DNA of 64,000 nucleotides from an uncultured virus (IMG/VR IMGVR_UViG_3300033149_002847) (Duplodnaviria; Heunggongvirae; Uroviricota; Caudoviricetes). The notes beneath the pieces are model-generated. The model did not search any database, was not told where the DNA came from, and saw only the letters and a list, made by a program, of their open reading frames with translations. The stretch lies in the IMG/VR virus record IMGVR_UViG_3300033149_002847. One strand, written 5' to 3'. Positions 4,033 to 59,792 of this stretch are shown piece by piece. The position numbers were made by a program, and so were the translations under genes. Numbering within the stretch: the stretch's first letter is position 1; each line of letters begins with the position of its first letter.

Positions 4033-4368
4033 TCATACTTTTAGGAATATGAGTTTATACCATCCTTTATAGCTATTAGGATTTTTATTAAAGATTTCAT
4101 CTTTAATAGGTTTGAAACGAGGTATATAAGCCATTGCAGGATCTTCTACAAATGAAGATGTGTTATTAAACAAGAACCTCATAAGTCCTTTAAATCCTTT
4201 CATCATTCCTGACATGAAAGAAAGAGAAATAAGAGCAAGCCAGGCTTTATCATTATTGTTAAAATGAATAGTCTCTTTTCTCCGGGACTTCTGCATAGCC
4301 CTATCGGCTTTTCCGTAAGCACTCATGTTTCCAAAACCTAATTGTGTTCTTCTTGATTTTCCCTTCAT
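4033..4368 (-). CDS. Hypothetical protein
   Basis: ATGA overlap with def. Confidence 0.6.
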   Translation of the reverse strand: MKGKSRRTQLGFGNMSAYGKADRAMQKSRRKETIHFNNNDKAWLALISLSFMSGMMKGFKGLMRFLFNNTSSFVEDPAMAYIPRFKPIKDEIFNKNPNSYKGWYKLIFLKV

Positions 4369-4802
4369 ACTGTTTCTCCTTTTGTTTTACATGAAATTCC
4401 GTCTAAATGATCAAATTCGTGTTGAAATACTTGAGCTTCTTTACCAGATAGCTTTCTATGCATTTCAACACCTTCTGAGTTAAACCAACTTACAAGGACC
4501 TGTTTAGGTCGTTTAATAATAAATTCAGTTCCTGGATAAGTCAGACATCCTTCCCTGAAAGTTCCAATTTTCTCACTGGGTTTTATTACCTGGGGATTGA
4601 TTATTAATACAATTCCTTTTAATCGATAATCTTTCATTATGAAAAATCTCTTAAGTATACCAACTTGTGGAGCTGCTAAACCGATACCATGATTATCTAC
4701 CATGATTTTTTTCATTTTATCAGCATCTTTCTTTACTTGTTCAAAATCATCTACAGGTATACATTTACAGCCTTCAACCTTCTTTGCTTCGACTAGCTTC
4801 AC
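4365..4802 (-). CDS. def: Peptide deformylase
   Basis: All three motifs: GIGLAAPQ, EGCLT, QHEFDHLDG. Confidence 0.95.
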   Translation of the reverse strand: MKLVEAKKVEGCKCIPVDDFEQVKKDADKMKKIMVDNHGIGLAAPQVGILKRFFIMKDYRLKGIVLIINPQVIKPSEKIGTFREGCLTYPGTEFIIKRPKQVLVSWFNSEGVEMHRKLSGKEAQVFQHEFDHLDGISCKTKGETV

Positions 4803-5611: not shown

Positions 5612-5980
5612 TTAAAATCCTGCATCTTCATCAAAAAGAGTATAAGACTGTTCTTCACCATCTATTAAAACATAATGACTGGCTGTTTTCATTATCTGTT
5701 CATGCTGATAATGAACAGCAGCAGATATAGTTCTAAGCTGCGTACCATGCCAGGCTCTATCATAAGTTATACTATCCATATACCCACCCATAAACCAAGC
5801 ATCACCTTTATAGTATTGTGCTATTAACTCTTTTACAGCCCACCAATAAGCACCAAAAAACTGGTAATTGGTTTTATCTTTTAGGATTAACTCAGCCAAC
5901 CCTCTTGCAGCTTGGGGGAGATCCTTTTCTGTTTTGCCGTAACTCTTAGCTATTTCTGTTGCAAATTCTTCACTATACAT
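5612..5980 (-). CDS. Hypothetical protein
   Basis: 122 aa, overlaps the end of the DarB-like gene. Confidence 0.65.
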   Translation of the reverse strand: MYSEEFATEIAKSYGKTEKDLPQAARGLAELILKDKTNYQFFGAYWWAVKELIAQYYKGDAWFMGGYMDSITYDRAWHGTQLRTISAAVHYQHEQIMKTASHYVLIDGEEQSYTLFDEDAGF

Positions 5981-8900
5981 TACTTACTCTCCTATAATGA
6001 TATTCATATTCCCTGGTATCTTTGCTTCTCATATATTCAACTTCATATCCCATGGCTTTTACAGGTGAATGTTTTTCACTTAATTCAGGGGGAATAGGAG
6101 TCCATTCCGCACTATCCTTTAGTTTTATATTAGGAAAATCTTTTCTGAATTGATCTATTTCTGGTTTGTAAAAAGTATCTCTCAATCCTTGAGGTATGGA
6201 CGGATCTTTTAGAGCTTCTTTAATATAATACCTACTATTTATATTCTCTGTTGATTCATCAGTTCTATCATAATCTTTTTCGAATTCAATAATATGATCT
6301 TTTATTTTATCAAGATCTGCCTTGATGTATGGATTTAATAGTACACCATTATTATTTGAATAGATGGTTACTTTATTATCAGATAGATAAAAAGCAGCTT
6401 TAGAACCTCCATAGCTTCGAGTGTGATCTCCTATAGCAACATAACCAGGATAATACTCTTTTTTATGTTGATCTGAAAGAGTGAAAAACTCTCCTGAAAC
6501 AGATCTATTATATAATATTTCATCATCTTTGGTTTTTATTCCTGGCATAGGTATAACTGGATCTTGATATCCATAACCTCCAAATCCCTTTTTAATATTC
6601 CAACTAGGAAGTTCATAGCCTTCATAATCTGGACTTTTAGGCATATAAAATTTTACTTCTCCCTTCTTAAAGTCAATACTTCTTACTCTATACAGATTTT
6701 TCCCTTTACTGTAATAATCCCCTATTTTCATAACTTTTTTATTCTTAGAATCATACATAAAAGGAGTTCTTTCACCATTGGTCAGTTCATGATTATGGAA
6801 TTCTGGATTCCCCTTCAAGGCCTCTACATAAACAGATTCCTTATTCATCATGTTCTGGTACTGCCTGGTTCCTTTTTCGCCTGTATATGACTCTAAGGCT
6901 CCCCTGACAGTACTTAACTTCTTCATAGTATCATTCATGGCTATAATGTTTCTTTGTTTAACCTTAGCCTCTTTTCGCTCTTTTATCTTGATTTTTAAAT
7001 TAGTAGTATCTTCACCCCATTCACCCTGTAAGGATATCTGCATTTCATCCATATCGAATCCTTCACCATCTGGATTAGTAAATACTGAGCTTTTAGTTTT
7101 AAGGAGAGTATTAATCCAATTCTCTTTTCCACTCACCTTAGCAATAGAATAATTATCAGTAGTTCCAGCACTTGCATAGGTATGGAGTTCTACCGATTTC
7201 TGTTTATTCCCTTGCCTGTCAATTCGCCCATTACGCTGTATAAAATCACTCGGTCTATAAGGAATATCAATATGATGCAATGCAGCAGAATTTTTCTGTA
7301 AATTAACACCTTCTCCTATTGTTCCAGTTGTTCCTATTACAACTTTATATTTACCAGAGTTAAAACCATCTATAACATCAGATACTTTAGTTTGTAGAGC
7401 TTTTTCGCTTTGCGCAGCTCCAGATTTTGTTATACCATTAACTATTACTATTTCATCTGGCTTAAAGCCTTTATCAATAAGTTCCTGTTTAATTTTATCA
7501 TGCATATTAAATGTTTTATCTGAAGAAAGAACTCTATCACAGAAAATTACCTGGCCTCCATCGGTTGCTTTCCAGTTATCTATTGAATTTTGAGCCATTT
7601 TTTCCAGTTTAGGATTCTTCCAACCTTTATAAAGGGCAGGATCATATAACTCTAAATCTAATGAAGCTGTTCTCATCTTAGAAAAGAAGGTTAAAGTATT
7701 CTCATTACTATCTCTATCTGCTTTGGGTAATTTCTTATACCTAGCAAGTTGTTCTGATAGACTTTTTAATTCTGAAACCTGATCATCGTTTTGTGATAAG
7801 ATATTAGCACGTTTTGTTGATTCTGGCTTTTCTAGGCCTATTTTAGTAGGATCATTCTGTAAATCGGTATATTTAAAGAACATATCCTGAAGACTTCTTA
7901 AATTCTTAAAACCCTTCAGTACTTTCTTATTAACCATCTTATCGCTGGACCAGTCATATTCATCACTTTGCTTGATATCTGCAAAATTCTTGATAAAATC
8001 ATTAATATTACTTATCCCTAATCTAACAAACTCTTCAGGAGCTATATGTTGTAGCATATTGTAATATTCAAGAGGGGAATTTGTCAGTGGCGTTGCTGTT
8101 AATAAAAAGACATTCTTCCCATCGTTCTTTTTTCTTATGTACTCACATTTTTTATAAAATGATAACGCTCTTTCAGATCTTCTACCATCATTAAGTCCTG
8201 TTTCCCTGGATAAACTAGAACTGAATAAATTCTTGTAGTTGTGAGCCTCATCCGTAAAAATAGCATCTACTCCTAAATCTTCAAAGGTAATAGTTTGATT
8301 CTTTTTACCACTAATCATCCTACCCCTGAGAGATTCCTTAGCTTTTTCCTTTTGTTTCTCTGTTTTTAAATCTGGCATCTGGCTAAATACTACATCTGCT
8401 GTAATTACTGCATCTTCTTCTTCAGATAACTGTATTTCTGAAGCCGAACTTTCAGGAAGGATTAGAACATCATATTCATTATTAGCAAGTTCCTGATACA
8501 TTTGATATCTAGCATCTCTATTTGAATATCCTTTCTCTTCAGGATCAACTGAACCGATCTTAAGATCTGGCATTGCAGCCTTCATTATTCTTAGCCAGTC
8601 TTTTACCTTGTTATTAGGGACCTGAAAAAGAGGTCTTTTTATCTTTCCTTCTTGTCTTAATAGAGCCATGAGGCCTACACCAGCTAAGGTTTTACCAAAC
8701 CCTGTTCCCAAGGCAGACATCCCTTTGCCTTTTTCATACAAGTGATGTATAGTCTGCCACTGCCATGGATCTAAAGTATATTTATCCCATCCATCAATAT
8801 TAACAGGATAAGTTTTATTAGGGACTCCCAGCTCTGTGTTGAATTTACGATTATATAATTCTTCCATTTCTGCCCGAAATTCTTCATGTGTAGAAATGAA

Positions 8901-11849
8901 ATTATTAAAAGAATCTTCTGCTGATTGATTATAGCTTATTGTATTAGCTTCATTTTCTTCTTTTGAACCGCCTCTTTGTTTCTGGAAATTCATAAAATAA
9001 ACTAAAGCTTTATCATAACCTCCGGAACTATCCCATGTTCCATCGTCCCTACGGTATACAGTTTGTCCATATTCCTCTTCAGACCACTGCTGGAGTATAT
9101 GTTGGGGTATCCATGATGATTGAGGCATAACATCGGCATCTTCTATCGATACCCAGCCTATAGCTTTTTCAAGTTCATCGATCCCATATTGTATTTTTTC
9201 TTTATTGTCAGCACTATCAAGACTAGATCTTAGTTTATCAATCTTATCCCAGGCATCCCCAGCTATAAAATCTTCTCTTAATTTAAAATTACCTTCATGA
9301 TCTAAAAATACATCCTGATTTTCAATCATTAGTTTTGTCAAGGAATCTGCATCGGTAGGATACATACTTCTAAGAACTTCAGGAGAAGCAGTGGATAGTT
9401 TTTTTTGTATTTCCTTTAATGCGACTATATCAGGTTGGTGACCATCCACTATACTAATATCTTTTGCATATATATTCTGGTTATTCAAAATTCCAGATTC
9501 TAAAGTTACATTTACAGCTTCATGGATAGATTTAAGAGTAGGGTTCTTTTTAAGTAACTTATTTACTGATAAGTCTTTACTAGGATATGAACCATATTCT
9601 TTTTTATATTCTTCGAGCAATTCCCGGACTTCATTTTGAAGATTTGTAGGATTTATATCCTCCTGCATAGCCTTTCTGATTTCATTTACTTTTAATGAAA
9701 TTTTAGTAAGAACAGGAATTCTCTTTGTTAGTTCTTCCTGGCCTCCCACTCTTTCCCATCTATGGTTAGCATTTAAGAAGTAAGTGATACCATTGACTAC
9801 CTTAACACTACCTATTAATAAGGTTTTAGCCTGAATAGCTGAGGCTTCTTCTTTATTCACCTGAAGATCATCTCTTGGTTTTTCTGTTATTGGATCTGGA
9901 AGATTGGAAACATCAATATTTTGTATTTCAGGCTTAAAATTGGAAACTGCATTATTAAGAAGGTTATCTGTTATTTTTCCAGTTGTTATAATAGCACCAA
10001 AATTACCAGTAGCTTTCTCTCCTAGCCTATTTTCAGGGTGACTATCGTAATATCCACCATTAACCCATTCTTCACTCCAAGCACCTGATTCCTTTAATTG
10101 TTCCTCAGTAGCTGTTTTAAGCTTATCTATGACCTCTTGTGAATGTTTCTTGAAATAGTAAATATCAGGAGATACCCCTGTCTGTGTATGTTTAAAGGAC
10201 TCATTAGGTAATTGCATAGCACCTACGAACTGGCCTTTTCTCAACATTTCCTTTCGCCATTCAAGGTTTGTCTTATTATTCATAATCCCTGAATAAGCTA
10301 TCATTCCCATTGTTCCACCAGGTTTCAAGTTATCTAAGGATTTACTTATAAAATATCTATCAAGAGTATCTTCCCCTGGTAACTTTTTACCGTTTGCATC
10401 TGTATCTGAGTCTATAAAGGAGGTTTCGACAGATCTCTTCCCAAAAGGGCAATTACCTGTAACAATGTCAAAATCCCTACTACTATGTAAATTGAACTGT
10501 TCAAAACTACCAGTGTCTATTTCAGAGTCCGGTTGTAAGATATCTGCTGCTTTAGCTGTTCTAGGATCATATTCAACTCCTATTGTTTTTACTCCATCTG
10601 GAGCAACTTCCATAAATACACCAGTTCCACAAGAAGGTTCTAATATTTTATCACTAGATTTAATAGGATTTATCTTGTTTATTGCTTGAAATATCATCTT
10701 TGCTACTGGAGGGGAAGTATAATAATCATACAATAAACCTCTCTCATCAGCTACTTTAGTACCCCCGAACCCTGAGTAAAGTCTTATTTTATCTTTTTCT
10801 TCCTTTGTAAGAAAATCCTTATTAATAAGTTCTGCTATTTCCTGATTAAGTTTTTCTCTCTGTGCTGGTTTAAGATGTTTTCCTTCAGGATTCCATGACC
10901 CGTAAGATCTAAAATCTTTAGATACAATCTTTTTATTCAAGCTTTTTTGAATATCAATAACTTTCTCCTTTGATTTCTCTAATATGTCATAAGGGTTTAT
11001 TACTACATTATCTATATAATTATCCATCTTAACTTCAGCATAAAAAGTAATATCACCTTCATCTTTCTGGTAATAATAACCCATGATTTCATTTTCTGGA
11101 ACCAATTTATTTATTATATCATCGGCTTCAGATTCTTCCATCTCAAATGTACCATTCGCAAATTGTTTCTTCCTTTCTAATTTAACAATTTCTTTAATCC
11201 CAATTTCAACTCCCTTGGCAGCCTGAATAAATTCTTTAACTATTGGTAACATTTTACCCTTAGAGTCTTGGAACCTGGAAGCGTTTTCTTTAACTATCTG
11301 GAGAAGTTCTTCCATTGAATTTGCATTAGCTATCTTTCTACGTACATTACGGATTGCCTGTTTAGCACCTCTTGTTTCTGCTTCTTTATAAGTTCGTACC
11401 CACTTACCAGAAGCCATTTTTTTAAACTCTTTTCCCTTCCATGTTCTGATAGTACCTACAGCAAAGCCTCTGGCCTTCAATAATAGTTCTTCAGCAGCTA
11501 TAGGAACACTACCTGGGTAAAGGATATCATCTAAAGACTTCTCTAATCTTAGAACGTTTAAAAGTTTTGCTTTCCAATATTCTAAGTCTTTTTCTGTTTT
11601 AGCTTTTTTTAGCTTAAGAGGACCGGTTAAAAATACATGATTATTAAGGGATTTTTTCATCAATACAGGATACTGTTTTTCTTGAAATTCAATAAAAACC
11701 CATTTTATAGGGTCCTGGATACTTTTTTTAAGTTGTTTAGTTGATTTTTTAATTGATCGGCTTTCTTTTAAAGATATTTTCTTTGTTCCAATCTGGTTAA
11801 TATAATATGATTCTAAAAGTGGTATAATTTCAAATAAAGGAATTTTCAT
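5973..11849 (-). CDS. DarB-like polyvalent protein: N6-adenine methyltransferase plus SF2 (SNF2-like) helicase
   Basis: YYTSP, LEPSCGTG, GNCPF (motif IV variant); GTGFGKT, DEAHNYKN, TATP, QRNGRIDRQGN; 1958 aa. Confidence 0.85.
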   Translation of the reverse strand: MKIPLFEIIPLLESYYINQIGTKKISLKESRSIKKSTKQLKKSIQDPIKWVFIEFQEKQYPVLMKKSLNNHVFLTGPLKLKKAKTEKDLEYWKAKLLNVLRLEKSLDDILYPGSVPIAAEELLLKARGFAVGTIRTWKGKEFKKMASGKWVRTYKEAETRGAKQAIRNVRRKIANANSMEELLQIVKENASRFQDSKGKMLPIVKEFIQAAKGVEIGIKEIVKLERKKQFANGTFEMEESEADDIINKLVPENEIMGYYYQKDEGDITFYAEVKMDNYIDNVVINPYDILEKSKEKVIDIQKSLNKKIVSKDFRSYGSWNPEGKHLKPAQREKLNQEIAELINKDFLTKEEKDKIRLYSGFGGTKVADERGLLYDYYTSPPVAKMIFQAINKINPIKSSDKILEPSCGTGVFMEVAPDGVKTIGVEYDPRTAKAADILQPDSEIDTGSFEQFNLHSSRDFDIVTGNCPFGKRSVETSFIDSDTDANGKKLPGEDTLDRYFISKSLDNLKPGGTMGMIAYSGIMNNKTNLEWRKEMLRKGQFVGAMQLPNESFKHTQTGVSPDIYYFKKHSQEVIDKLKTATEEQLKESGAWSEEWVNGGYYDSHPENRLGEKATGNFGAIITTGKITDNLLNNAVSNFKPEIQNIDVSNLPDPITEKPRDDLQVNKEEASAIQAKTLLIGSVKVVNGITYFLNANHRWERVGGQEELTKRIPVLTKISLKVNEIRKAMQEDINPTNLQNEVRELLEEYKKEYGSYPSKDLSVNKLLKKNPTLKSIHEAVNVTLESGILNNQNIYAKDISIVDGHQPDIVALKEIQKKLSTASPEVLRSMYPTDADSLTKLMIENQDVFLDHEGNFKLREDFIAGDAWDKIDKLRSSLDSADNKEKIQYGIDELEKAIGWVSIEDADVMPQSSWIPQHILQQWSEEEYGQTVYRRDDGTWDSSGGYDKALVYFMNFQKQRGGSKEENEANTISYNQSAEDSFNNFISTHEEFRAEMEELYNRKFNTELGVPNKTYPVNIDGWDKYTLDPWQWQTIHHLYEKGKGMSALGTGFGKTLAGVGLMALLRQEGKIKRPLFQVPNNKVKDWLRIMKAAMPDLKIGSVDPEEKGYSNRDARYQMYQELANNEYDVLILPESSASEIQLSEEEDAVITADVVFSQMPDLKTEKQKEKAKESLRGRMISGKKNQTITFEDLGVDAIFTDEAHNYKNLFSSSLSRETGLNDGRRSERALSFYKKCEYIRKKNDGKNVFLLTATPLTNSPLEYYNMLQHIAPEEFVRLGISNINDFIKNFADIKQSDEYDWSSDKMVNKKVLKGFKNLRSLQDMFFKYTDLQNDPTKIGLEKPESTKRANILSQNDDQVSELKSLSEQLARYKKLPKADRDSNENTLTFFSKMRTASLDLELYDPALYKGWKNPKLEKMAQNSIDNWKATDGGQVIFCDRVLSSDKTFNMHDKIKQELIDKGFKPDEIVIVNGITKSGAAQSEKALQTKVSDVIDGFNSGKYKVVIGTTGTIGEGVNLQKNSAALHHIDIPYRPSDFIQRNGRIDRQGNKQKSVELHTYASAGTTDNYSIAKVSGKENWINTLLKTKSSVFTNPDGEGFDMDEMQISLQGEWGEDTTNLKIKIKERKEAKVKQRNIIAMNDTMKKLSTVRGALESYTGEKGTRQYQNMMNKESVYVEALKGNPEFHNHELTNGERTPFMYDSKNKKVMKIGDYYSKGKNLYRVRSIDFKKGEVKFYMPKSPDYEGYELPSWNIKKGFGGYGYQDPVIPMPGIKTKDDEILYNRSVSGEFFTLSDQHKKEYYPGYVAIGDHTRSYGGSKAAFYLSDNKVTIYSNNNGVLLNPYIKADLDKIKDHIIEFEKDYDRTDESTENINSRYYIKEALKDPSIPQGLRDTFYKPEIDQFRKDFPNIKLKDSAEWTPIPPELSEKHSPVKAMGYEVEYMRSKDTREYEYHYRRVSNV

Positions 11850-34696: not shown

Positions 34697-35018
34697 TTAT
34701 TTCTCCCTTTTTATCTGTTTTAGGCATAACCGACAAATCAACATAATATGGTCCATTCAGCTTTATAGTATAGGCCTTTCGTCCATGGGGTTTATCCATA
34801 GCTTTGTCATATTTAGGTTCGTCAAATTCAGCTCTCATATCATATTTCTCTCTTAGCTCTTCCACTAAAACTTCTGGATCTTCAGCATCTTCTACCCATG
34901 GAACGGCTAATAAATCAAGATCCCTATTCATTGATCCATGGAGGGTTAAAGCATAACCGTGTTTTTCTGCAATCTTTTTCATACCGATGTATAAAACAGT
35001 ATATACAGGTGCTATCAT
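34689..35018 (-). CDS. Minimal nucleotidyltransferase-like phage protein
   Basis: HGS...RDLDLLAVPW, VDLS (GS..DxD..D pattern). Confidence 0.5.
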   Translation of the reverse strand: MIAPVYTVLYIGMKKIAEKHGYALTLHGSMNRDLDLLAVPWVEDAEDPEVLVEELREKYDMRAEFDEPKYDKAMDKPHGRKAYTIKLNGPYYVDLSVMPKTDKKGEIND

Positions 35019-35701
35019 TTTTTCTCTCCATAAAGATGATTTTTACCTGCTTCAATATCATCAAAGAGTACGGGTACCAATTCCCTTAATTCTCTTAAAA
35101 GTGGAATCATAAGTTTTCTTATTTGGGGATGAGCTGCATGTGCTGTCCGGAGTTTTAAAATATGTCTCCACTCTCTGATATTTGCAGTTACTATAATCTC
35201 AGTCTTTAGAGAGTTAGGTAATACTGACCTTGCTTCCTGGGGAGGACATCCTAATTCAATCATATCTTGATAGGCCTCTTCGGTTCTTTTCATAGCTCTA
35301 TTCCAGATATTAAATCTTTTCAAGTTCTTATCAAAGTTTCCTTGAATATCCTTAGAAACGGATTGTATATTTCCCCAATCAAATACAGGTCTTATAAACT
35401 CAGTATCACCATAGTACTTAACATATCGGGTGGACTCTTGAGCAAAAGAAGCAACCCTATGTCTAACAAGTTCATGTGTAACACCTCTATCTGTAATAAA
35501 TCGTACAGTGATATTACCATGTTCAATCATGGCTTCATGACCTCTTTTGATTAACATCCTACAGAACCCTTCAGCTGACTCATCAGTTATCTTATTTTCT
35601 GACTTATAACAAGTTCGTCCTGCAAGCTCTATCATTTCTGGTATATCTATAATCTCTTTTATTGGAGTTAATATTATATGACTCTGATCAATTATTTTCA
35701 T
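35015..35701 (-). CDS. thyX: FAD-dependent thymidylate synthase
   Basis: GHEAMIEH, THELVRHRVASFAQESTRY, EARSVLP, NIREWRH, AHPQIR. Confidence 0.95.
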   Translation of the reverse strand: MKIIDQSHIILTPIKEIIDIPEMIELAGRTCYKSENKITDESAEGFCRMLIKRGHEAMIEHGNITVRFITDRGVTHELVRHRVASFAQESTRYVKYYGDTEFIRPVFDWGNIQSVSKDIQGNFDKNLKRFNIWNRAMKRTEEAYQDMIELGCPPQEARSVLPNSLKTEIIVTANIREWRHILKLRTAHAAHPQIRKLMIPLLRELRELVPVLFDDIEAGKNHLYGEKK

Positions 35702-45968: not shown

Positions 45969-46418
45969 TCAAAAATCCCCTTCTTCAACCTGAAGGCATT
46001 TAACTCCAAGTGAACGCCATTTCTTAACCATAGAATTTCTATCTTCTAATACAAAGTCTATTTCCTGTAGCATAATTCCAGAACTTGCGACTAATTCTGG
46101 TTTAGCCTCTGAATCAGGTCTATGATCTTTATTAGCTCTCATTAATAATACTTGGTATGTGAAATTTGGAGGGAAATATTTCTTTATCCATTTTTCTGTT
46201 CTATCTCTGATAGCCTCTTTTCTTCCAGTACAGAATACAATTTTATACCCTCTTAAAGATAAAGTATGAACTAAATCAATTATTTCCTGAATTGGTTCAT
46301 CTTGAAAAGCATGTCTATAAAAAGAATCCCAGTCTTTAGGGGTATCAAGCAGGTATTTTATTCTATCACCAACTTTTGAAATTGTGCCGTCAATATCTAC
46401 TATAATTATGTTTTTCAT
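45969..46418 (-). CDS. HAD phosphatase (T4 PNK 3'-phosphatase-like)
   Basis: VDIDGT, CTGR, LMR...D.RPD..K, EDR...W. Confidence 0.85.
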   Translation of the reverse strand: MKNIIIVDIDGTISKVGDRIKYLLDTPKDWDSFYRHAFQDEPIQEIIDLVHTLSLRGYKIVFCTGRKEAIRDRTEKWIKKYFPPNFTYQVLLMRANKDHRPDSEAKPELVASSGIMLQEIDFVLEDRNSMVKKWRSLGVKCLQVEEGDF

Positions 46419-59059: not shown

Positions 59060-59088
59060 TTGACAAAGTATTTAAACGGGTGTAAACT
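59060..59088 (+). promoter_or_regulatory. Early-type promoter with conserved AACRRGTG motif, driving the ncRNA island
   Basis: TTGACA-AAGTATTTAAACGGGTG-TAAACT. Confidence 0.8.
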
Positions 59089-59255
59089 TTAGTTACTTTT
59101 AGGAGTTTTTCTAAGATCTTTAAAACATATTTTGGAAAAGGGAGGTAATATATGTTCCCCCATAACCAAAGGAGATAGTACAAAAAATCCAATTGGTTAG
59201 GCCTTAAGCAAAAGGTAGTTATAGGAAAAGGGGATATTCTTACAACAACATTAAA

Positions 59256-59323
59256 GCCAGATTAGCTCAGTGGCAGAGCTGTTGTGCGCAATGTAAGCTC
59301 CGGTTCAACTCCGGGATCTGGTT
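59256..59323 (+). tRNA. tRNA-like RNA with a collapsed 4-nt anticodon loop (no assignable anticodon)
   Basis: Acceptor GCCAGAT/ATCTGGT; D arm GCTC-AGTGGCA-GAGC; T arm TCCGG-TTCAACT-CCGGG; middle arm GTTG-TGCG-CAAT. Confidence 0.7.
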
Positions 59324-59515
59324 ATATTGGACATGCCTTCTTAGGAAAGGATCACCAATAAAAACCTTATTATCATGGTAATAAGGGGTACGAAAGAGAA
59401 ATTGTTGATTTAGATTTTTTTTGATCGGTAGCCTTGTGCAAGCCAAGTTCTTTTTAATTGAGGTTGTAAAGAGTAGGTTCTATACAACATAGCCTTCCAT
59501 GAGAGGCTTTTACTT

Positions 59516-59669
59516 CGGCAAGTGGTGAAATTGGTAAACACATGAGTATTTTTAAATGTATGGTTATTCGTTGATTGAAAGGGCAGAATGTAAAATTTAA
59601 AACTTTCCCTTACGCACATTAGAGTGTGAAAAAACTCCATGCTTGCAGGTTCGACTCCTGCCTTGCTTA
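59516..59669 (+). ncRNA. tRNA-like RNA with an 86-nt insert replacing the anticodon loop
   Basis: Acceptor GGCAAG/CTTGCT; D arm GTG-AAATTGGTAAA-CAC; GAGT...ACTC; T arm GCAGG-TTCGACT-CCTGC. Confidence 0.7.
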
Positions 59670-59792
59670 TAACCCTAAAAACTTCTTAGAAGATATAAAT
59701 GGGGTTAATATCGGAAACGAACAAAGTTTATTACAAGCATGTATTTCCTGCTTACTCCGATAAGGTAGGGAATATTTTAAAAAGGAGAGATT

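Follow-up and report, generated by a model that had tools for sequence, protein, structure and literature searches.

The 64,000-nucleotide (nt) window analysed here, a whole stretch of DNA from the uncultured virus IMGVR_UViG_3300033149_002847 (IMG/VR), carries at 59516-59669 on the plus strand a tRNA-like gene, called element 2 below, in which an insert replaces the anticodon loop. A second tRNA-like gene, element 1, sits 193 nt upstream of element 2. Both lie in 733 nt of non-coding DNA (59060-59792) between small plus-strand open reading frames (ORFs) that lead into a helicase gene; elsewhere the phage is densely coding. The parts of element 2 are the following:

59516..59669, plus strand: tRNA-like gene, element 2, with a tRNA-Leu-type chassis and an insert replacing the anticodon loop; Rfam RF00005 match
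59516..59522, plus strand: acceptor 5' strand CGGCAAG, pairing with 59662-59668 at 6 of 7 positions
59525..59541, plus strand: D arm of class II/tRNA-Leu type, GUGA-AAUUGGUAA-ACAC, with three pairs plus A.A; site of the D-arm 20-mer
59543..59547, plus strand: anticodon-stem 5' remnant UGAGU, aligned to model positions 27-31
59548..59633, plus strand: insert, about 77-86 nt, AT-rich, with ends ambiguous within U and A runs; two small hairpins
59634..59638, plus strand: anticodon-stem 3' remnant ACUCC (Rfam alignment)
59639..59644, plus strand: short variable region AUGCUU, 6 nt (Rfam alignment)
59645..59661, plus strand: T arm GCAGG-UUCGACU-CCUGC, with a perfect 5-bp stem and a canonical T loop
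59662..59669, plus strand: acceptor 3' strand CUUGCUU plus discriminator A73 (59669); CCA not encoded

Chassis and insert of element 2

The Rfam tRNA model RF00005 matches 59516-59669(+) with 30.4 bits (cut-off 29) over model positions 1-71, that is, all 71 of them, with an expectation value (E) of 0.025 for the 64-kb window and of 7.4e-5 when 191 nt are searched. In this alignment, 83 unaligned bases fall within the anticodon loop. Together with the acceptor paired at six of seven positions, the D arm and the perfect T arm, this end-to-end match shows that the tRNA scaffold described in an earlier note on this DNA is real. The elbow nucleotides U8, A14, G18G19, U54-A58, C56 and G53-C61 are all present, as judged from sequence and alignment. 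By explicit criteria, no anticodon arm of 5 bp and 7 nt is found at positions 27-43, and no register yields both a 7-nt loop and standard spacing. Element 2 keeps the upper half of a tRNA but supplies no anticodon, and since about 85 extra bases occupy the place of the anticodon loop, it cannot read codons. The chassis has a GC content of 0.49, versus 0.29 in the insert and 0.33 in the window.

The earlier note regarded the insert as a structured cargo. The helices it named, GAGU/ACUC, U5/A5, AAGGG/CCCUU and CACAU/GUGUG, do exist in the sequence: GAGU/ACUC (59634-59637) and U5/A5 are able to pair round a bulged A59548, and the insert hairpins AAGGG/CCCUU and CACAU/GUGUG reach pair probabilities of 0.6-0.8. 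The proposed closing helix, GAGU(A)UUUUU with AAAAAACUC, shows pair probabilities of 0.18-0.54 (0.30-0.54 for its GAGU/ACUC part) and has an iso-energetic rival, GUAUGG 59558-63 with CCAUGC 59637-42 (-23.0 versus -21.0 kcal/mol), which would give an 85-nt variable arm versus the 6-nt variable region of the Rfam alignment. Bases 59639-59644, with 59637-38, then have an alternative role as the 3' strand of a variable-arm-like closing helix, as seen in the minimum free energy (MFE) fold. When set against dinucleotide shuffles, the insert has no better MFE: z is +0.52 at 86 nt, -0.06 when the 103 nt separating the D and T arms are folded, +0.41 for its 75-nt core and +0.56 for the whole 154-nt element. 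The description of the cargo as structured is thus not borne out.

Searches for relatives of the insert gave a similar picture. No Rfam family matches it, even at E<=10 on the element alone (191 nt), and blastn-short found no relatives in 161 viral loci, the best match being 14 nt at E 0.035. Nothing in metagenome contigs matched the exact junction pattern of element 2, and the insert has no similarity to the T4 and T5 RNAs discussed below. An origin from a miniature inverted-repeat transposable element or another repeat was rejected, the insert being single-copy in the window and not flanked by a direct repeat interpretable as a target duplication. The insert also contains a 14-codon frame (59556-59600(+)), with an AUG and 13 codons followed by UAA, without a Shine-Dalgarno sequence.

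A complementarity search of the insert, as the earlier note had proposed, yielded a pairing of the 3' part (59590-59650) with the p90 leader (59725-95) at -30.8 kcal/mol. This energy is equalled by 2 of 901 genome windows and by 2 of 1000 shuffles. When 19 control regions of equal size were scanned without bias, the best duplexes ranged from -24.2 to -33.5 kcal/mol, with 4 of the 19 at -31.6 or better; the pairing falls within this range and was rejected as chance. Overall, filler that is tolerated, or a module specific to the lineage and evolving fast, is a likelier description of the insert than a conserved aptamer.

The second gene shows an equally local defect:

59256..59323, plus strand: second tRNA-like gene, element 1; RF00005 38.5 bits, E 2.8e-7

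Its D arm and T arm are intact, and so is its acceptor, whose seven pairs include one G.U. Seventeen anticodon-arm positions are replaced by 14 unaligned nt, leaving the loop 3 nt too short; these 14 nt can fold into a GUUG/CAAU stem with a UGCG loop, or five pairs if U59280.G59293 is counted. ARAGORN in default mode calls neither element 1 nor element 2, and the whole-window Rfam scan misses element 1, whose match is found by Rfam only with a small search region. At window scale, it is to the Rfam filters that element 1 is lost. A simple detector found no further T-arm/acceptor bodies in the window.

Leucine tRNA bodies in other phages

The D-arm 20-mer of element 2 occurs at no fewer than 121 viral loci of IMG/VR. 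Among the matches listed, all 95 ARAGORN-called tRNAs with the 20-mer have class II bodies of 75-99 nt and 83 of them are tRNA-Leu, mostly UAA; by another count, likewise among the matches listed, Leu is given in 85 of the 100 first ARAGORN calls on these loci. A T arm identical to that of element 2 is found at 40 viral loci. In element 2 the D arm ends 107 nt before the T loop, as against 27-39 nt normally. Since a normal relative, L045, shares both the D arm and the T arm and has a short, 5-nt variable loop, the most economical origin is a single insertion into the anticodon loop. The residual loop bases are readable as UU-U / insert / AA-AA, which corresponds to a tRNA-Leu(UAA) loop interrupted after U34 and before A35, where L121 has a genuine group I intron. 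UAA is also the commonest anticodon on the Leu chassis (51 of 65 canonical genes).

Two other groups of IMG/VR loci came up with this chassis. L003, L021, L037, L050, L077, L119 and L120 have tRNA-Leu(UAA) 5' halves that stop in the anticodon loop and continue into unrelated, apparently coding sequence; considered as intron-bearing tRNA-Leu genes, they were rejected, 5' halves fused to unrelated coding sequence being att-like fragments. L005, L018, L034, L036, L041, L114, L129 and L134 carry class II bodies of the Leu type. These are 84-87 nt long, end in ..GCCA, have CTGTTYA or CTGTTTC as the loop, a pyrimidine at position 37 and discriminator G, and are called tRNA-Asn(GTT) by ARAGORN.

How often such a body lacks its anticodon arm was surveyed in 161 viral loci plus the window, in two pattern-derived sets, counting as a Leu chassis any gene that combines a Leu-type D arm with a T stem of 5 bp and an acceptor paired at six or more of its seven positions. 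This gave 90 distinct genes, the window's own included: 65 with a canonical anticodon arm at 27-43 and 25 without. About 15 of the 25 are grossly aberrant or oversized (among them three in tandem in L100, and those in L031, L085, L126, L130, L132 and L054). When 18 loci were submitted to Rfam, the tRNA model spanned 105-170 nt in nine of them (L085, L100, L125, L126, L128, L130, L146, L153 and L031). The three oversized tandem genes of L100 (211-326, 349-454 and 571-676, minus strand; 106-116 nt each) have differing acceptors and non-canonical anticodon arms, and have in common a motif in the variable-arm region, ..ACGAAAA(A)GTAAGAGTAATC(T/C)GAAAAGTAGTT.. The ending AAAAGTAGGTTTT is common to the L031 and L100 genes.

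The design of element 1 recurs as well. A pattern with its D arm and the shortened spacing retrieved 80 loci. In L269/L292/L306 and in L310, which are unrelated phages, a 5-bp stem with a 4-nt loop (UGUC, UGCC or AUAA) takes the place of the anticodon arm, and ARAGORN reports tRNA-??? with a 2-nt anticodon. A family with a GGAATG..CATTCC acceptor comprises 50 loci (37 distinct), a subset of L262-L341, mostly on contigs some 45 kb long from a single IMG sample. In this family the T stem and the 3' acceptor strand, neither forced by the pattern, are at least 90% conserved, the middle is shortened and variable, and the flanks vary strongly; ARAGORN makes no call for nearly all of its loci. In the literature outside subscription journals we found no description of a family of phage RNAs with a tRNA-Leu body and no anticodon.

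Surroundings, phage and relatives

Apart from the two tRNA-like genes, two features were noted in the non-coding stretch:

59060..59088, plus strand: promoter-like site TTGACA-17 nt-TAAACT, matching the consensus at 10 of 12 positions, where the 733-nt region begins
59491..59508, plus strand: hairpin with TTTACTT behind it, 7 nt upstream of element 2; a possible weak terminator or processing hairpin

Two promoter-like sites were found versus 4.4 in shuffles, and the site at 59060 is a consensus match only. Terminator-like sites are more frequent than expected (3 versus 0.6), one of the three being the T arm itself. An 8-codon mini-ORF (59150-59176(+), ATG..TAG) stands behind a strong GGGAGG ribosome-binding site, in a context like that of the p90 start, with which it shares direct repeat D1 (74% over 23 nt), and is perhaps what is left of a gene that the tRNA-like block displaced.

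The window belongs to a tailed-phage contig, with PHROG matches to a major head protein, a portal, a large terminase, an SbcC-like nuclease, a dUTPase and a helicase. The window GC content is about 0.33, as given above, and the standard bacterial code fits: stop-codon recoding with a suppressor tRNA was rejected, as ORFs of 100 amino acids (aa) or more already cover 84% under code 11 and no alternative code stands out. Other auxiliary genes are a 1958-aa DarB-like methyltransferase/helicase polyprotein (5973-11849(-)), a peptide deformylase (4365-4802(-)) and ThyX (35015-35701(-)). A stand-alone PNK-type phosphatase domain is encoded at 45969-46418(-). A tRNA healing and sealing system was considered and rejected, the phosphatase being alone, with no kinase, RNA ligase or RtcB in the 64-kb window (of an 85-kb contig).

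Isolate phages in INPHARED gave no DNA match to the element region by blastn, and the closest isolate terminase, that of Brevibacillus phage Emery, is 36% identical. Relatives of the helicase are 49-86% identical; several lie on contigs of 81-89 kb, two are labelled Spirochaetales or Oceanispirochaeta, and one is on an 84-kb contig belonging to a Spirochaetaceae metagenome-assembled genome (MAG). For the host, the Spirochaetales and Spirochaetaceae labels are only a hint. The closest helicase relatives, P0002-P0004 (74-86% identical), are known as proteins only. Through the helicase alignment, six related loci were obtained, L162 (on the same contig as L208), L209, L210, L211, L214 and L215, representing four or five distinct phages; their helicases are 54-67% identical to that of the window, the L214 value coming from 37 residues only. 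In L214 the order is p221-p71-[409 nt]-p79-helicase, and the gap seems, by eye, to hold an ORF of about 87 codons; L210 has just 192 nt at the syntenic spot. Three ordinary tRNA genes (Met, Gly and Gln, as inferred from record order) lie some 40 kb away from the helicase in the relative on the MAG contig, and an 81-kb IMG/VR relative has no tRNA genes. All six related loci lack element 2 entirely, and the tRNA-like block and the adjacent 90-aa ORF are thus specific to this phage among the accessible relatives.

Known counterparts and competing explanations

The closest known counterpart of element 2 is T5 RNA1 (NC_005859 30501-30644), annotated as 'tRNA-like stable RNA with unknown functions', which means that the RNA class is not an undescribed one, as the earlier note had thought possible. 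Both molecules are phage-encoded, have a canonical T arm and a Leu-type D arm (GCCGGAAUUGGUAGACGG in T5 RNA1), and are spanned by the Rfam tRNA model (24.0 bits over 131 nt for T5 RNA1). In T5 RNA1 a 47-nt insert replaces the anticodon loop and is closed by an anticodon-like stem, with the same alignment pattern as in element 2; the first acceptor pair is mismatched in both (U1.U72 in T5 RNA1, C1.U72 in element 2). T5 RNA1 sits inside a tRNA gene cluster, whereas the only such neighbour of element 2 is another tRNA-like gene. Its insert is conserved with covariation across T5-like phages, unlike the roughly 83-86-nt insert of element 2, which has neither structure excess nor relatives. Homologs of T5 RNA1 are found in 487 isolate phage records, and across nine sampled members compensatory changes occur at 11 of 37 predicted pairs, some of them inside the insert. 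This conservation and covariation establish that a tRNA body presenting a structured insert is a real, conserved type of phage RNA, already on record. In most of the 40 listed homolog rows, which come from T5-like phage records (e.g. OR896824.1 76304-76438), either no feature or a 'hypothetical protein' lies under the match; the coding sequences that overlie the homolog in several of them are probably mis-annotated RNA genes.

Other systems resemble element 2 less closely. T4 species 1 RNA (rnaC, NC_000866 70908-71046) and species 2 (rnaD) are small stable phage RNAs of unexplained role; PMC9697503 describes RNAC and RNAD as having unknown function and as late RNAs confirmed by Northern blot. 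The T arm of rnaC is canonical, as in element 2, and one of its stems resembles an acceptor, but rnaC is a much looser look-alike without a Leu-type D arm, located at the end of a true tRNA cluster, and its best Rfam match is tRNA-Sec (17.5 bits, E 0.54). Transfer-messenger RNA (tmRNA) likewise joins a tRNA-like acceptor/T-arm domain to a long region replacing the anticodon arm; element 2 differs in its third acceptor pair (G3-C70, not G3.U70) and in having a full D arm within 154 nt. Neither ARAGORN nor Rfam reports a tmRNA in element 2, in agreement with the absence of a tag frame stated by the earlier note, and the 59556 frame has no tag-like ending when set against typical tmRNA tags. In another system and organism, plant mitochondria, t-elements are tRNA-like cleavage signals for tRNA-processing enzymes that set mRNA ends, according to PMC1920247; the likeness to element 2 is one of tRNA-like structure.

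Taken globally, we give about an even chance to the reading that element 2 is a non-decoding, tRNA-Leu-derived, tRNA-shaped RNA of the T5 RNA1 kind, accompanied by a second tRNA-like gene without an anticodon. This reading is supported by a chassis that is intact, by an aberration confined to the anticodon region, by the same kind of defect in element 1, by the layout shared with T5 RNA1, and by the recurrence of aberrant middles in other phages. A number of observations weigh against it. The Rfam score is just 1.4 bits over the cut-off, and the acceptor end is weak, with the C1.U72 mismatch followed by a G2.U71 wobble. T5 RNA1 has a long variable arm where element 2 has a short variable region, and its discriminator is U where that of element 2 is A; blastn-short finds no homology of element 2 to T5 RNA1 or to T4 rnaC beyond 8-nt matches in D/T-loop motifs (E>=1). 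The insert has no excess thermodynamic structure relative to shuffles, and the terminator-like hairpin lies directly upstream. At E<=1, the flanks obtained around the helicase gave no tRNA hit in any of the six related loci; L214 and L210 carry different sequence where the tRNA-like block would sit, and no conservation of element 2 could be demonstrated among these loci, the 161 viral loci or the metagenome contigs. Finally, the survey sets were ascertained by sequence pattern, so that their counts show recurrence rather than frequency or population estimates.

The main rival, a less probable account although one to be taken seriously, is that a tRNA-Leu(UAA)-type gene was recently inactivated by an insertion of about 80 nt and its neighbour by a 3-nt deletion in the loop, both being functionless parts of a block in the course of being lost. 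The absence of the element from all accessible relatives fits this account, as do the genome-like composition of the insert and its lack of excess structure, the acceptor-end mismatch and wobble, and the marginal Rfam score. The GAGU/ACUC remnants and the short, L045-like variable region are what one insertion event would leave, and the residual loop is readable as tRNA-Leu(UAA), the commonest anticodon on this chassis. Against decay, the only lesions of two neighbouring genes fall in the 7-nt anticodon loop, with about 55 chassis positions in each untouched, which is unexpected under neutrality; moreover, a compact phage genome keeps 733 nt non-coding here, both types of lesion recur in unrelated phages, and the equivalent architecture of T5 RNA1 is clearly under selection.

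Splicing of the insert to give tRNA-Leu(UAA), with the break at U34/A35, or tRNA-Lys(UUU), appears very improbable. The position does fit that of the L121 intron, exon 1 ends in U, and one register ends the insert in G before AAAA; the window also encodes the PNK-type phosphatase domain, and ARAGORN in intron mode gives tRNA-Lys(CUU) with a 59-nt intron. That call is unconvincing, as it requires an A.A mismatch inside the anticodon stem together with an unusual variable arm. The splice-site signature (U before the 5' site, G last) appears in one register where the U and A runs permit many, and none of these combines a 7-nt loop with standard spacing. A group I intron is expected to have a recognisable RF00028 core and roughly 200 nt or more. 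L121 illustrates this: its tRNA-Leu(UAA) gene has the same D-arm 20-mer and is interrupted in the anticodon loop at a position compatible with U34/A35 by an intron of about 250 nt that matches Rfam Intron_gpI with 42 bits. At 77-86 nt, the insert of element 2 is far too short for such a core, with no Intron_gpI or ribozyme match at E<=10, and on this point the earlier note was right. It was also right about the bulge-helix-bulge: by inspection, without a formal search, the U5/A5 helix does not have two 3-nt bulges separated by 4 bp. Neither an RNA ligase nor RtcB was found in the window, and no bacterial splicing endonuclease is known.

The earlier note itself favoured a tRNA body acting as a scaffold that presents the insert as a functional aptamer, decoy or antisense domain, a proposal that we now consider improbable for this locus. 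T5 RNA1 shows that such inserts can be conserved and structured, and the note is upheld to the extent that natural tRNA-scaffold RNAs of this architecture occur. In element 2 the two local hairpins with pair probabilities of 0.6-0.8 and the -30.8 kcal/mol pairing with the p90 leader would speak for a cargo, but the pairing is unremarkable against the 19 control regions, the insert has no excess stability, Rfam match or relatives, and nothing at this locus points to a functional one. The strong form of the proposal is further weakened because the element is unconserved, which the note had itself named as a criterion.

To return to element 2 as a non-decoding RNA of the T5 RNA1 kind, both elements would be transcribed with the early/replication genes on the plus strand, possibly from the promoter-like site at 59060. 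RNase P, 3' trimming and CCA addition by host enzymes would then excise both RNAs, as expected from the fact that such enzymes read the acceptor/T-arm half, and by analogy with T5 RNA1 both may accumulate as stable tRNA-shaped RNAs. The determinants of E. coli leucyl-tRNA synthetase (LeuRS) given in PMC9976931 are A73, A15-U48, G18G19, A20a and the D-T loop contacts. By our own numbering of the sequence, element 2 carries all of these, which makes leucylation without decoding plausible; judged from its sequence, it may be charged with leucine yet be unable to decode. Leucylation cannot be general to the T5 RNA1 kind, since T5 RNA1 has U73. Candidate roles would be to occupy proteins with affinity for the tRNA body, as a decoy or sponge, or to mark a cleavage site in the p90-p79-helicase operon leader.

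A broader proposal, which we regard as speculative and unlikely as it stands, is that phages widely encode deliberately anticodon-less tRNA-shaped RNAs acting on proteins that recognise the tRNA body. The present phage would then hold two designs side by side, one tetraloop-capped and one insert-bearing, probably leucine-chargeable, with the hypervariable middle as an evolving interface. If proteins are indeed the targets, such RNAs could serve as decoys for host defence nucleases or toxins that attack tRNAs, as non-decoding leucine donors, or as LeuRS sponges.

Because element 2 is unconserved and its insert bears no sign of selection, its value is mainly that of one more instance. T5 RNA1 and the T4 species 1 and 2 RNAs have long been annotated, with a role that is still unexplained. 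The design of a leucine-tRNA body without an anticodon and with a variable middle recurs in unrelated uncultivated phages, and two such genes can adjoin in one phage. If functional, these genes would make up a class of non-coding RNA in phages that has been neglected and that escapes standard tRNA finders.

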